Shown one piece after another: positions 959 through 59,856 of a stretch of DNA of 64,000 bases (its first letter is position 1; each line of letters starts with the position of its first letter). The stretch covers positions 1,125 to 65,124 of the forward strand of contig JANXBA010000022.1 of the NCBI GenBank assembly GCA_025062075.1. The letters are read 5' to 3'. The notes under the pieces are model-generated. The model was not told the origin of the DNA and did no database searches. It saw only the letters and a list, made by a program, of their open reading frames with translations. This stretch comes from Aquificaceae bacterium (lineage in GTDB: Bacteria; Aquificota; Aquificia; Aquificales; Aquificaceae). The position numbers were made by a program, and so were the translations under genes.

Positions 959-3195
959 CCGGCCTCTTTTACGAGCTCTACGAGCTCTCTCTTGGTTAGA
1001 CGGAAGGCATCAGGACCGAGAGAGAAAAGACCAAAGGCCAGAAGAATGCGGTCGTCCACCAGATAACCCCTTGCGTTGCCGTGTATGACCTTCTGTATCT
1101 TTAGGAGCTCTTCCTTTGCCTTCTCGGGGGAGAGTTCCCTGTAAAGAGTGAGCCTGTGCATGAGAGGTTCTTGGAGCTCTGAAAGAATTTCTAAGAGACT
1201 CTCGGTGGGCGTGCACAGGCTTGGGGCGGGGAGGCCTGCCTCCATGAGGCTCTCCTTGAGAAGGTTTGCCCTTATGTGTCCTATACCCTTTATGCCTGCG
1301 AGGGCAGCGTAGGCCGGGCTTACGCCGTACTTAACAGAGTGGGCAATCTGTAAAATCTCCATAGAGGTGAACCTGTAGAAGCCCCTTTTTTGCACCTCCA
1401 TAAGAGTTCTCACCAAGTGCAGGGCATCCGTCCCCAAGTAGGAGAACTCTCCCGGAGGGTGCTTGAGGTTTGAGTATCTGGCGGTAAAGCCCTCTACGTA
1501 GAAGATAAACTGCTCCGTGTTGTCCTCTTGACACCGCCTACCGCAGGGGAGGAGCATACCCCTGACTATCTCCTTGTCTTCCGAGAACCTCTCTTTTCGC
1601 CTGAGAAACTCAAAGAGTCCTTCAAACTTTTTCATGTGCAGGAGAGGTCTGACGGTTATCATAGTTTCAAATCCCATCTTCTTTCTTGCTAAGAACTCCT
1701 CAAAGCGCGTGGGGGGTATGCCGGTCTTTATGCAGAAAAGCCCCTTCTCCGTAAGTTTGTAGTCCCGTAGGTAGCCATGACTTTTTAAGAAGCTCCCCAC
1801 CTCTTGCACCTTCTTCTTGCTGATTTTGCGGAAGGAAAAGGTGCTCTCAAGGTAGCGCAGGTAGTTGGCTCCCTCGTGCATGTGGGCCAAAAGCAGGAAA
1901 AAGCTAAGAGTGTCCACGCCTCCTTCTTCTTCCATCACTGCGGTGCGCAGGGCACCTCCTAAGGAGGTCTCCACTTCTTTCTGGAGCTCTTTCTCGCTAC
2001 CGCCGTAGAGCAGTAGGTTTGAGTAGCCCACCTCCTTAATGCCCAGTCTGCCCGCCCTGCCCTCCATCTGCAGAAGGTCAAGGCTGTCGGGTATGACCCT
2101 CGTCTTCCCTCCTCTTCGGAGGAACCTGACTAAGACCACTACCCTGTCCGCAGGCAGATTGACGCCGTAGGCCAGCGTCTGGGTGGCGATAAGAGTCTCC
2201 AACTTCCCTTCTCGGAAGGCTTTTTCTATCTCTTCTCTCTCTTCCTTCGGCACGTCTGCGTTGTGAAAGGCCATCTCCGGCTCTCTCTCCTCCCGAAGGT
2301 CGAAGGGCACCGTCTGGTTCATTATGCCGATTCTCTCTTCCTTTGCCAACTCCAGGATTTTCCAGCCCAGACTTTTTTTAGGGACGAAGAGGATGAGCTT
2401 CTCCCTCGGTTTTTTCAAGGAGAAAAGGGCGTTCAGTAGCCTGCTTGCCACCAGCTCCTCCTGAGTGTCCTCAGAGCCGTTCCTAAGCGGGGGAAACTCC
2501 ACCAGCCTTCTCACCTCGCGGTGCAGTGGGACCGGTCGCCAAGCACTCTCTATGAGGAGCTCTGCCTCTATCCACTCCGCCATTTCCTCCACGCCGGGCA
2601 AGGTGGCAGAAAGACACAGCATGGGAAGGTTTTTTCTCTTGCAAGCGGTTATCACCTCTTCCAGTATCCACCTTTTGCCCACTTGGTGGACCTCGTCTAT
2701 GACTACCGCCTCCAGCTCCTCTACCCATCCCGCTGCATTTCTGAGGGCGTAGGCCAGGTGCTCGTAAGTGCTCACTATCACCTTTGCCCTAGGGTTTTTA
2801 AAGTTTTCTATGAAGCTCTCACCTGTCCTGAGTTCTACGTCTTTGGGATAGTAGCGCCTGAGCTCTACCGCCTTTTCTTTCACCAAAGAGCGCGTAGGTG
2901 CGGCGTAGACCAGCCTACCCCTGAAGTTCTTCATGAAAAGATAAGCCAGAAGACTTTTACCAGAGGAGGTAGGCGAGGAGACCAGGGCACTGCCTCCCGA
3001 GTAGAGTCGGTAAAAGATGGTCTGCAGGGGGTTTAGAAGAGGGTAAGGTATGAGGGGGTCTACGCATGCAGAAGGAATAAGTGGCTCTTCCTGGATACCA
3101 CTTGAACGGTTCGTAGTGTAGAGCACCCTGCCCTGAGGAGGGTCCAGAAGGTAAGAGCTCTCCTTCAGAAGGTGAGCTCTCAGAGCCTCTCCCAT
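955..3195 (-). CDS. Ski2/Hel308-like SF2 DEAH-box helicase
   Basis: SPTSSGKS (I), DEVH (II), SAT (III), FHNA, ATQTLAYGVNLPA (V), QMEGRAGR (VI); C-terminal HhH-like GIKGIG; exact start uncertain. Confidence 0.9.
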   Translation of the reverse strand: MGEALRAHLLKESSYLLDPPQGRVLYTTNRSSGIQEEPLIPSACVDPLIPYPLLNPLQTIFYRLYSGGSALVSSPTSSGKSLLAYLFMKNFRGRLVYAAPTRSLVKEKAVELRRYYPKDVELRTGESFIENFKNPRAKVIVSTYEHLAYALRNAAGWVEELEAVVIDEVHQVGKRWILEEVITACKRKNLPMLCLSATLPGVEEMAEWIEAELLIESAWRPVPLHREVRRLVEFPPLRNGSEDTQEELVASRLLNALFSLKKPREKLILFVPKKSLGWKILELAKEERIGIMNQTVPFDLREEREPEMAFHNADVPKEEREEIEKAFREGKLETLIATQTLAYGVNLPADRVVVLVRFLRRGGKTRVIPDSLDLLQMEGRAGRLGIKEVGYSNLLLYGGSEKELQKEVETSLGGALRTAVMEEEGGVDTLSFFLLLAHMHEGANYLRYLESTFSFRKISKKKVQEVGSFLKSHGYLRDYKLTEKGLFCIKTGIPPTRFEEFLARKKMGFETMITVRPLLHMKKFEGLFEFLRRKERFSEDKEIVRGMLLPCGRRCQEDNTEQFIFYVEGFTARYSNLKHPPGEFSYLGTDALHLVRTLMEVQKRGFYRFTSMEILQIAHSVKYGVSPAYAALAGIKGIGHIRANLLKESLMEAGLPAPSLCTPTESLLEILSELQEPLMHRLTLYRELSPEKAKEELLKIQKVIHGNARGYLVDDRILLAFGLFSLGPDAFRLTKRELVELVKEAG

Positions 3196-3503
3196 ATCCT
3201 CTCCATTCTCTTAAGCTCTCTGTCAAAGACAAAGTGCAATTCTGGCAACCTTTTTGTGCGGAGACTTCTGGAAAGAAGACTTCTGATGTAGGGTTTGGCT
3301 TGCTCTAAGGCTTTACCTGCCTCTTGCTCTCTGCCTTCAGTTAGCGTGGTAAAGTACACCTTCGCATTCCAAAGGTCCGGAGAAAGTTCCACGTGAGTTA
3401 TAACCACCCCCTCCAGCCTTGGGTCTTGGAGAGCTCTAAGCACAAGCTCTGCTATCTCCTGCATGAGGAGTTTTTCAAGTCTTGCCTTTTTTACCTCCAG
3501 CAT
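3180..3503 (-). CDS. rbfA: ribosome-binding factor A
   Basis: DPRL..V.IT.V.LSPDL..AKVY...PELHFVFD. Confidence 0.95.
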   Translation of the reverse strand: MLEVKKARLEKLLMQEIAELVLRALQDPRLEGVVITHVELSPDLWNAKVYFTTLTEGREQEAGKALEQAKPYIRSLLSRSLRTKRLPELHFVFDRELKRMERIWERL

Positions 3504-3520
3504 GGTATATTAAATTATTA

Positions 3521-3566
3521 CCTCGTTCCTGCACAGACAGTGGCAGGGACCACATAGCCCAGGAGG
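3521..3566 (+). promoter_or_regulatory. probable S6:S18 ribosomal-protein leader RNA
   Basis: Stem GTTCCTGC(3525-3532)/GCAGGGAC(3543-3550), a CCC in the 3' loop, and CCTC able to pair with the SD AGGAGG (3561-3566), directly upstream of rpsF. Confidence 0.6.
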
Positions 3567-3572
3567 TAAGGA

Positions 3573-3908
3573 ATGGCCAGAAGATACGTAAAGACCAACC
3601 GCCACTACGAGAGCGTGGTAGTCTTCAAACCCACTCTCACGGAGGAGGAGCTGAGCAAAAAGCTCCAAGAGATAAAGGACTTTGTCCAGAAAAAAGGTGG
3701 TCAGGTGCTGGAGGCCACAGACTGGGGAACCAAGACCCTGGCCTACCCCATACAGGGCTTTAACCATGGCAGGTACTACATCCTCCAGGTGAGCTCAGAC
3801 AGGTCTGAGCTCCCCAACGAGCTGGACTTCTACTACAAGATAAGCGAGGACGTAATCCGCTGGCTCAACATACAAGTAAAAACTTACGGAGGGAACAAAG
3901 GTGCTTAA
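3573..3908 (+). CDS. rpsF: 30S ribosomal protein S6
   Basis: YESVVVFKP...WG.K.LAYPI...G.YY; rpsF-ssb-rpsR-rplI order. Confidence 0.97.
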   Translation: MARRYVKTNRHYESVVVFKPTLTEEELSKKLQEIKDFVQKKGGQVLEATDWGTKTLAYPIQGFNHGRYYILQVSSDRSELPNELDFYYKISEDVIRWLNIQVKTYGGNKGA

Positions 3909-4299
3909 CAAGGTCATAATCATAGGCAGGCTCACCGACGACCCAAAAACAAGGCATGTCTCCGACAACCCCGACAGTGGCACGATAGTGGAGTTCAGCA
4001 TAGCTTACAACCGGCGCTACCCAGTAGGAGAAGAGTGGAAAGAAGAGAGCCACTTTTTTGACGTGAAGGCCTTTGGCAGGCTGGCTCAGAGCCTTGGGGA
4101 ACGTCTATTAAAGGGCTACTTAGTGGTCTTAGAAGGCAGGCTCGTGCAAGAAAAGTGGACGGACAGGGAAGGCAAGCACCAAACCAAGGTGCGCATAGTG
4201 GCGGAGAGCGTAAAGATAATAAGCAAGCCGAAAGGGGAGAGCGTTCAGGAAGAGGATACAACAGACGGGCCTTTCGGTGATGAAGGATTGAACTTCTAA
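3901..4299 (+). CDS. ssb: single-stranded DNA-binding protein
   Basis: MLNKVIIIGRLT.DP, OB-fold, acidic tail ending in F. Confidence 0.95.
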   Translation: MLNKVIIIGRLTDDPKTRHVSDNPDSGTIVEFSIAYNRRYPVGEEWKEESHFFDVKAFGRLAQSLGERLLKGYLVVLEGRLVQEKWTDREGKHQTKVRIVAESVKIISKPKGESVQEEDTTDGPFGDEGLNF

Positions 4300-4310
4300 G
4301 GAGGTAGAGG

Positions 4311-4532
4311 ATGGACACAGTGAAGAAGTCTGCGAAAAAAAGCTGTCCTTTCTGCGAGGCCAAAAGGGACCCTAGCTACAAAAACTACGAAGAGCTCCGA
4401 CGCTTCATGACAGAGCGGGGCAAGATACTGAGCAGAAGGCAGACGGGAGTGTGCGCCAAGCATCAGAGGATGCTCGCCAGAGAGATAAAGAGGGCCCGAC
4501 AACTGGGACTGCTCCCCTATCTTGTAGCCTGA
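4311..4532 (+). CDS. rpsR: 30S ribosomal protein S18 (zinc-binding type)
   Basis: CPFC...YKN...L.RF.TERGKI..RR.TG.CAKHQR.LA..IKRAR.LGLLPY. Confidence 0.98.
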
Positions 4533-41962: not shown

Positions 41963-42307
41963 TGGTGGAGGCGGCGGGAATCGAACCCGCGTCCGAGAAC
42001 CTTCAGAACCCGGGGCCTCTACAGGCTTAGCCAGTGCTCCTCTTTAGCCTCGGGGCGTCCACTGGCAAACCCCCTCAAGGCGAGCAAGACTGACGTTTCG
42101 GTCTCAAGCCGGTCCTGCACGGCCTGAAACCTACACCTCCGTTTCTGAACCCTTCCCACCACCCAGAGGCCAAGCGGTGGGAGAGCCGCTACCTCAGTTT
42201 AGGCAGCGAGAGCCAGTTCCCTTTCGGGAAGTGTTTGCTTTGGCTGTTGAGGTTGCCACCCTGCCTGCAACCCCGTCCTACAGCTCCCGTCGAGCCCATT
42301 CGCCCCC
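41963..42307 (-). ncRNA. ssrA: tmRNA (transfer-messenger RNA)
   Basis: 5' GGGGGCG, 3' GGTTCGATTCCCGCCGCCTCCACCA; tag frame 42231-42199 = LPERELALAA*. Confidence 0.97.
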
Positions 42308-59228: not shown

Positions 59229-59304
59229 CACCCCCAGCGGGATTCGAACCCGCGCTCTCCGCCTTGAAAGGGCGGTGTCCTGGACCTGGCTAGACGATGG
59301 GGGC
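59229..59304 (-). tRNA. tRNA-Glu(TTC), CCA not encoded
   Basis: GCCCCCA acceptor with TGGGGGT, anticodon arm CCGCC-CTTTCAA-GGCGG, T-arm GCGGG-TTCGAAT-CCCGC, followed by TTTTT. Confidence 0.96.
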
Positions 59305-59317
59305 TAAACTCTTATAG

Positions 59318-59346
59318 ATTATATCACGCATAGTCTTTACAGTCAA
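59318..59346 (-). promoter_or_regulatory. sigma70 promoter of tRNA-Glu(-gyrB)
   Basis: TTGACT-17 nt-TATAAT with TGn extension. Confidence 0.85.
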
Positions 59347-59349
59347 GAG

Positions 59350-59573
59350 TATCCCTCAGCATGGACATTTGTTCCATGCCTCGGGTTTAGGGACTATGAC
59401 TGAAGCTTTTAGCCTTCAGTCAGTAAGCCCCACGCCCTACCCCAGGGGCGCTAATACCGCTCACTACTTAGGAAAATCCCAGGCAATGAGGGCTTGCCTA
59501 ACGTGGTCTCATTGCATCCCCCCACCTAACACGGTTAGGCAGGTTTCTGGATGCAACTTGAACCACACAGGCT
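59350..59573 (-). ncRNA. unidentified highly structured non-coding RNA candidate (~220 nt)
   Basis: Dedicated promoter upstream; at least 7 stems of 5-9 bp; G-U pairs valid only on minus strand; no credible ORF. Confidence 0.65.
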
Positions 59574-59579
59574 ATGGAT

Positions 59580-59608
59580 AGTTTACAACAAAAGGTCGTG
59601 TTTGTCAA
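59580..59608 (-). promoter_or_regulatory. sigma70 promoter driving the ncRNA candidate
   Basis: TTGACA (59608-59603)-17 nt-TAAACT (59585-59580). Confidence 0.8.
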
Positions 59609-59634
59609 GAGATTGAATAATTAGTCGCTAAGAC

Positions 59635-59856
59635 CTACCTTCTCAGCACTGAAAACGCAAGGGTCAGAATAAGGGACAGAAGGAGGCTCAGCAGGAGAGA
59701 GGTCCCCAGAGGAAGGTAGAGAGTAAGGCCATCTCTCCTTACTGTTATGTCGCCGGGTAGCCTTCCAAAGGGCAACTTGTCGGAGAAGGTAAGCAGGAGC
59801 CCTCCTACGACGAGTAAAGTGCCTATCAGTATAAGAGTCTTGCCCAGCTCGCCCAT
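59635..59856 (-). CDS. DUF2905 small membrane protein
   Basis: Start MGELGK at 59856; GRLPGDI.......Y.P..TS.LLS.LLS. Confidence 0.85.
   Translation of the reverse strand: MGELGKTLILIGTLLVVGGLLLTFSDKLPFGRLPGDITVRRDGLTLYLPLGTSLLLSLLLSLILTLAFSVLRR

Follow-up and report, generated by a model that had tools for sequence, protein, structure and literature searches.

A 285-bp segment at positions 59345-59629 (minus strand) of the window very probably derives from a tnpB-only (IS1341-type) insertion sequence (IS) of the IS200/IS605 family, as a non-autonomous element that encodes no protein and is similar in kind to PATEs and MITEs. By the window we mean the whole stretch of DNA that was analysed, 64,000 nucleotides from a hot-spring Aquificaceae MAG lineage. 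Elements of this kind are already known, and the segment illustrates them clearly; it is not a new RNA class. It forms a TnpB-less mini-transposon made up of a left end, a promoter, an omegaRNA scaffold and a right end, as judged from an empty-site contig and from copies of the same architecture elsewhere. Its boundaries are good to within 4 nt only, owing to an ambiguity over the sequence TCTT.

Organization of the mini-element

The upstream neighbour of the element is a DUF2905 small membrane protein gene at 59635-59856 on the minus strand (PF11146, 2.1e-20; an alternative ORF reaches 59910). The TAG stop codon of this gene abuts the motif GTCTT (59630-59634, minus strand), which stands directly 5' of the left end and is the likely target or transposon-adjacent motif (TAM). 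The left end (LE; 59576-59629, minus strand) includes the tnpB promoter and was recognized by its match to the left end on contig C4 of the same genome. The promoter itself, of sigma-70 type (TTGACA-17-TAAACT; 59580-59608, minus strand), scored 10/12 matches in a promoter scan and has its predicted transcription start at about 59573, roughly 7 nt upstream of the first scaffold helix. As the retained 3' part of the IS opens with the 5' arm of that helix, the start sits a few nucleotides before the scaffold. The omegaRNA scaffold (59345-59567, minus strand), delimited by its fold and by comparative data, finishes at its 3' end with GGGAUACUCUU. According to the position rule for TnpB omegaRNAs (PMC10691335, PMC10055086), the predicted guide segment is GACTGTAAAGACTATGCGTG (59325-59344, minus strand), the flank that immediately follows the right end.

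The downstream neighbours are tRNA-Glu (anticodon TTC; 59229-59304, minus strand) and, beyond it, gyrB (59218-56837, minus strand). The tRNA-Glu promoter (TTGACT-17-TATAAT with an extended TG, TGnTATAAT; 59318-59346, minus strand) scored 11/12 in the promoter scan, which returned three sites over 1.2 kb against 0.9 expected. No plausible gene is present in the 330 nt from 59305 to 59634, where the only ORFs are chance frames of 36-70 aa. A preliminary description of this region, made from the sequence alone, had placed a minus-strand promoter TTGACA-17-TAAACT in front of a gene-free stretch, and the scan found it at 59608-59580; the same description let the RNA end where the -35 of the tRNA begins, which is exact to the base.

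The scaffold overlaps the 3' end of tnpB

Copies were searched for with nhmmer in the genome that carries the window and with BLAST in its relatives. The former contains exactly two omegaRNA copies, the second of which lies on contig C50 (G000:C50) and is 72% identical over 209 nt covering the omegaRNA and the right end (RE). Among the relatives, the DNA search gave matches in 16 of 61 genomes, with up to 15 copies per genome, many of them no more than a few hundred bases away from the end of a contig. The homologous stretch in these relatives overlaps the last ~70 codons of TnpB ORFs of 484-501 aa. The coding sequence preceding most copies ends ...CSNCGYVDKENRKSRSEFECKCCGKKLHADVNASRNLL, and the ORFs end ...CSNCGY..HADVNASRNL. 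They match PF07282 (Cas12f1-like_TNB; 1.8e-18, 2.2e-20) and PF01385 (OrfB_IS605), as well as Cas12f/TnpB PDB chains over the RuvC/zinc-ribbon part. The motifs ALDFG, VVEDL and HADVNA are legible in the translation and can be read, by their position, as the D, E and D of RuvC.

The tnpB ORF traverses the whole homologous stretch and stops ~10 nt short of a common terminus, ...GGGATACTCT(T), beyond which the copies diverge; about 70 tnpB codons thus have a dual use, in the protein and in a structured RNA. In full-length copies (for example, L004:1501-1716), the TnpB ORF extends across the entire omegaRNA scaffold. Overlap with the 3' end of tnpB and a finish at the right end of the transposon are the defining position of a TnpB omegaRNA (PMC10055086, PMC10691335). 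Since its homologues overlap the 3' ends of TnpB genes, we infer that the stretch in the window is a TnpB omegaRNA scaffold within a TnpB-less mini IS.

The genome that carries the window also contains a full-length copy, divided between the ends of two contigs. The end of C4 shows GTCTTGGAAACTAATCATTCAATCTATTGACAATTTTGGGCTTTTCTTGTAATCTATCCCGAG-ATG and the first 30 tnpB codons, and that of C50 shows the last 92 tnpB codons together with the omegaRNA and right end; tnpB is visible in this genome as these two contig-end fragments only. Window positions 59634-59576 are 78% identical over 59 nt to the left end on C4, the -35 and -10 included, and full-length and mini copies alike have the promoter at the same place in the LE. 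The mini-element therefore reads as an LE with the tnpB promoter, followed, after the internal deletion of nearly all of tnpB, by the last ~215 nt. This retained 3' part starts at a remnant of the HADVN codons; in the omegaRNA, the remnant serves as the 5' arm of P0, the outermost helix. The mini-element in the window has also lost the apex of helix P3; in full-length copies, the apex that mini-elements drop codes for part of the TnpB tail.

Two relatives (L007, in G002:C56, and L013, in G012:C70) have KLHPAVNAS in place of KLHADVNAS in tnpB, ~240 nt before the right end. Judged from the translation, the RuvC-III aspartate is replaced in these TnpB proteins, which may be nuclease-dead. The 6-nt HPAVNA change exactly complements a variant 3' arm of P0, GCAGGAUGG, that other copies have (L020 and L030), and mismatched combinations of the two arms occur.

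Structure and covariation of the RNA

The minus strand of 59347-59575 (229 nt) folds with a minimum free energy (MFE) of -113.6 kcal/mol, compared with -75.3 +/- 4.6 for shuffled sequences (z -8.3; 0 of 200 shuffles as good), whereas the plus strand reaches only -84.4 kcal/mol (z -4.0). A highly structured RNA of ~220 nt had been proposed, and its strand had been called from the direction of the promoter; the fold agrees on the first point, and the far greater stability of the minus-strand fold shows the strand call to be right. The RNA had also been described as lacking the hallmark motifs of SRP, 6S, RNase P, tmRNA and the common riboswitches, and no Rfam family model matches the stretch: Rfam 15 gave no credible match there at the gathering threshold or at E<=10, and otherwise only tRNAs, the tmRNA and chance hits (bxd_1, GlsR14). 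A match to a curated model is not strictly defining for an omegaRNA, as omegaRNAs are very diverse. The tmRNA of the window (41963-42307, minus strand; RF00023, 132.5 bits; tag peptide AKANTSRKGTGSRCLN by ARAGORN) looks ordinary.

All helices described here are on the minus strand. P0 pairs 59566-59561 with 59508-59503 (GUGGUU/GACCAC in the window), P1 pairs 59557-59549 with 59520-59512 (UUGCAUCC/GGAUGCAA), and P2 spans 59539-59525 (CCUAAC/GUUAGG). The consensus structure further comprises P3 (59493-59457), P4 (59451-59446/59437-59432) and P5 (59431-59426/59395-59390, with an inner hairpin at 59422-59397). A right-end hairpin (GCAUGGA/UCCAUGC) is present at 59385-59353; no clear or convincing left-end hairpin was seen.

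Covariation was assessed on an alignment (A1) of 21 copies, with a consensus of 55 pairs. Compensatory double changes are found at 33 of these 55 pairs, and 97.4% of cells are paired, against 30-47% in controls with the partners displaced by 1-3 columns. On each of five measures, all of 500 shuffles fell short of the observed value. P0, for example, covaries among CUUCACGCUG/CGGCGUGAAG, CUCCAUGCGG/CCGUAUGGAG, GCCAAUGCUG/CAGCAUUGGC and the GUGGUU/GACCAC of the window. In an alignment of five mini-elements alone, 16 of 74 pairs are compensated, which indicates that the fold has been kept after the loss of tnpB. On this comparative evidence, the RNA structure is under selection.

The comparative data sort the eight stems of the preliminary description. 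They uphold P0, P1, P2, the GACUGAAG/CUUCAGUC hairpin (variable, and located in P5) and GCAUGGA/UCCAUGC, and leave two unsupported. The stem AGUGAGC/GCUUACU loses 2 of its 7 pairs in 12 of the 21 copies, with no compensatory change, and the loop of GGGAUU/AGUCCC is found in mini-elements only, the consensus having GGGGCU/AGUCCC instead; both were rejected. The remaining stem, CCCUCA/UGAGGG, is pairable in 90.5% of cells, with covariation that is not significant (not above shuffles). It might be a pseudoknot like those of TnpB omegaRNAs; one is known in the omegaRNA of ISDra2 (PMC10097598).

Copies elsewhere and the empty site

The same mini-architecture occurs in five copies with different flanks, in two genomes. 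Besides the copy in the window, four are found in the sister genome G014 (on C208, C2, C26 and C110), at unrelated loci. Each has an LE after GT(C/T)TT, followed by the promoter, a scaffold that starts at P0 and has its P3 apex shortened in the same way, and the RE. All five have both deletions in common, and the G014 copies are 69-82% identical to the window element. Independent mini-elements that join an LE promoter to the scaffold are present in G004 and G010. Directly before the left end, GTCTT, GTCTC, GTATT or GTTTT was found in all copies compared, and the sequence farther upstream differs.

A 1,623-nt contig from metagenome run X2, from a hot spring, joins 59344 to 59630 and represents the empty site. 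It is ~98.5% identical to the flanks in the window and has a flank-like depth of 36. Exactly 285 nt are missing from it; the joint is ambiguous over the 4 nt TCTT and shows no duplication, and the GTCTT is kept. The occupied form is seen in run X1 at a depth of ~10. Seamless presence or absence beside a short conserved motif is behaviour of the IS200/IS605 type (PMC10055086). Over window positions 59229-59637 and L004:150-1760, the depths of the IS family in X1 and X2 add up to values between thousands and tens of thousands, compared with 10-36 in the unique flanks, and many internal-deletion joints are seen within the family. The summed depths in the thousands, over both the element interior and tnpB, indicate that this TnpB family and its deletion derivatives are very abundant in these hot-spring communities.

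The empty site was taken from metagenome contigs because the adjacency that a species-level empty site requires is missing: in a synteny test of 40 relatives, tRNA-Glu lies beside the DUF2905 gene in no other species. The preliminary description had tied the RNA to the tRNA-Glu/gyrB locus. This specificity is lost, as the element is absent from the locus in a closely related population and the adjacency is missing in other species of the genus; from the empty site and the missing adjacency it follows that the sequence is not conserved upstream of tRNA-Glu/gyrB, but it is conserved and covaries elsewhere, attached to tnpB. Nor is it an undescribed RNA system, the stretch being a multi-copy mobile sequence whose homologues overlap the 3' ends of TnpB genes. 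A new free-standing class of cellular RNA, unrelated to mobile elements, would suit a strong fold with its own promoter and no Rfam match. Such a class is contradicted, however, by homology to full-length IS copies, both at their left end and where tnpB runs into the right end, and by the multiple copies, the empty site and the lack of conservation at the locus; we consider it refuted.

No Y1 TnpA (PF01797) was found in the genome that carries the window. Within the genus, 2 of 25 genomes have one, beside other tnpB types without these LE and RE ends, and no cognate transposase with matching ends was found among the 25 genomes. In the complete genome G016, the sole Y1 tnpA (L094, G016:C1:747500-756500, at ~2771-4460) is in two pieces ~1.28 kb apart, which correspond to PF01797 positions 1-91 and 87-121, separated by an oppositely oriented ORF of 418 aa; an ORF of 435 aa comes next. 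This arrangement resembles a nested insertion or an IS605 element of unusual layout.

A genome without a Y1 transposase and with tnpB in fragments only is what one might expect if the element were an inert wreck, that is, an internally deleted, decaying IS copy in which the promoter and folds are leftovers and any RNA is idle. Decay does occur: the G011 mini-elements (L003 and L019) are more damaged and have lost the 5' half of the scaffold. We nevertheless judge this explanation unlikely. The architecture is precise at five loci, where the promoter abuts P0 and the whole scaffold is kept, with only a helix apex trimmed, and the mini design arose independently in at least two more lineages. 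Moreover, the five mini-elements, at 69-82% identity, keep their helices, through the 16 compensated pairs, and also their promoter hexamers.

The exact omegaRNA core motif is also present in four MAG records (L068, L069, L074 and L079; JAWCEU010000055, JAUQPD010000034, RFFP01000022 and RFFP01000001) that bear the labels Aenigmatarchaeota, Thermodesulfobacteriota and Acidobacteria. Two 'Acidobacteria' MAG contigs, with lengths of 182269 and 24034, agree in length and in match positions with contigs of G018, a genome of the window's genus. Mislabelling or mis-binning is likelier here than transfer.

Insertion into the tRNA-Glu promoter

The element has inserted within the -35 hexamer of the tRNA-Glu promoter (TT|GACT), and TTGACT is read at the empty junction (GTCTT|GACT) as well as at the occupied one (CTCTT|GACT). 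The right-end terminus, CTCTT, differs little from the putative TAM, GTCTT. The final one or two T's of the element are the opening T's of the -35 TTGACT. Since the right end finishes in the TT of the target motif, TTGACT is regenerated and the insertion leaves the tRNA-Glu promoter intact. TCTT is common to the right-end terminus (region 59341-59350) and the target motif (59630-59634). Through this common TCTT, TTGACT is re-formed and the occupied site comes to bear a TAM-like motif beside a perfect guide match: at the occupied locus, the right-end TCTT is immediately 5' of a perfect match to the guide that spans the tRNA-Glu promoter. A terminator was looked for between the right end of the element and tRNA-Glu, and none was seen.

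This arrangement could suggest that the element has been domesticated as a regulator of tRNA-Glu/gyrB, either as a portable upstream promoter or as the source of an RNA guiding a (possibly nuclease-dead) TnpB to the tRNA-Glu promoter, in the manner of TldR. The guide region is exactly the spacer of that promoter, transcription from the element to the tRNA would meet no terminator, and some relatives' copies of tnpB have HPAVNA for HADVNA; the TAM-like TCTT beside the guide region is supplied by the right end. We regard such a role as very unlikely, however, as a closely related population does not have the element at this site and other species show no synteny for it. Its flanks differ for every copy, which fits a transposon rather than a fixed regulator, and the tRNA has its own near-consensus promoter. 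We likewise give very little weight to a scheme in which the omegaRNA would bring TnpB, or one of the relatives' variants without the aspartate, to the tRNA-Glu/gyrB promoter in a form of self-targeting, with the guide length arising through tRNA 5' processing, as an early and still-mobile TldR-like domestication.

Proposed mechanism of retention

For a non-autonomous tnpB derivative, which is the reading we prefer, the following mechanism can be proposed. The left-end promoter would transcribe the scaffold and read through the right end into the flank; read-through is plausible because there is no terminator between the right end and the flank. The resulting omegaRNA would carry the guide GACTGTAAAG..., the spacer of the tRNA-Glu promoter, and its predicted target sequence is the flank at the insertion site (GACTGTAAAGACTATG). 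A TnpB supplied in trans would load the RNA of the mini-element. It would come from the full-length copy, which is split over C4/C50 in the same genome and very abundant in the community. The omegaRNA of the window is assumed, from shared structure, to be compatible with this TnpB despite being 72% identical to the copy on C50.

Excision of the mini-element would recreate the donor joint, GTCTT followed by the guide. TnpB-omegaRNA would then cut the recreated joint, and homologous repair from the sister chromosome would restore the element. Re-cutting of the vacated site would amount to a homing or retention mechanism, as shown for IS605 TnpB, and by analogy the likely role of the RNA is that of a trans-used guide that lets TnpB re-cut this site.

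A second target of the guide in the same genome, with <=3 mismatches in 16 nt next to TCTT, was looked for, and none was found. The result is consistent with a selfish role and speaks against regulation of some other locus; a guide with no further target would also be in keeping with an inert wreck. In two runs guessed to be RNA, low-depth contigs lie over the element (59257-59617 and 59346-59499) and none lie over the neighbouring genes. They hint at expression of the element, or at DNA carry-over; the contig 59257-59617 starts upstream of the predicted start site at ~59573. An expression signal made up of low-depth contigs in such runs is likewise compatible with an idle, decaying copy.

Comparison with known systems

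Stand-alone omegaRNAs that function in trans are known, and Aquificae are especially rich in TnpB (PMC10691335). These omegaRNAs (Altae-Tran et al. 2021, via PMC10691335) resemble the window element in being a mobilised locus without effector and transposase, with an effector-containing copy in the same genome, and the RNA in the window would be expected, by analogy with them, to act in trans with a compatible TnpB. The family in the window differs in belonging to Aquificaceae and having a large TnpB (484-501 aa), and the window element differs in having the sigma-70 consensus promoter of its left end fused directly to the first scaffold helix.

The PATEs of the Geobacillus stearothermophilus ISGst families (Meers et al., PMC10055086) also have a left and a right end and no ORF. 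Often they encode an omegaRNA that can serve only in trans, and their excision and insertion beside a short motif are seamless, like the presence or absence of the window element. By contrast with these PATEs, no cognate Y1 TnpA with matching ends was found in the genus of the window, and a left-end hairpin is not evident. ISGst elements have clade-specific TAM and TEM motifs (PMC10055086); in the window element, the putative TAM GTCTT is nearly identical to the right-end CTCTT.

The RNA of the window family resembles the omegaRNA of ISDra2 TnpB (PMC10097598) in overlapping the 3' end of tnpB, in having a multi-helix scaffold that runs to the right end and in its predicted guide, which would come from the flank. 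The proteins of the window family have, like that of ISDra2, a RuvC/TNB C-terminal domain. Unlike the ISDra2 omegaRNA, the scaffold in the window is longer (~220 nt, helices P0-P7), and its pseudoknot is only a candidate. With the guide RNAs of TldR, a nuclease-dead TnpB (PMC10705468), the window RNA has in common a TnpB-type guide, here a predicted one, that is complementary to a promoter. Unlike in TldR systems, the promoter match is here the insertion flank of a mobile, polymorphic element, and no dead TnpB gene is fixed at the locus.

These results remove a false candidate for a new RNA class and give the region its proper annotation; current understanding of OMEGA systems is unchanged by them. 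They show cleanly, in a bacterium, how small a natural cassette for omegaRNA expression can be, with presence/absence evidence. The dispensable P3 apex, the scaffold boundaries and the candidate TAM GTCTT could be useful for characterising the TnpB lineage of thermophilic Aquificaceae.
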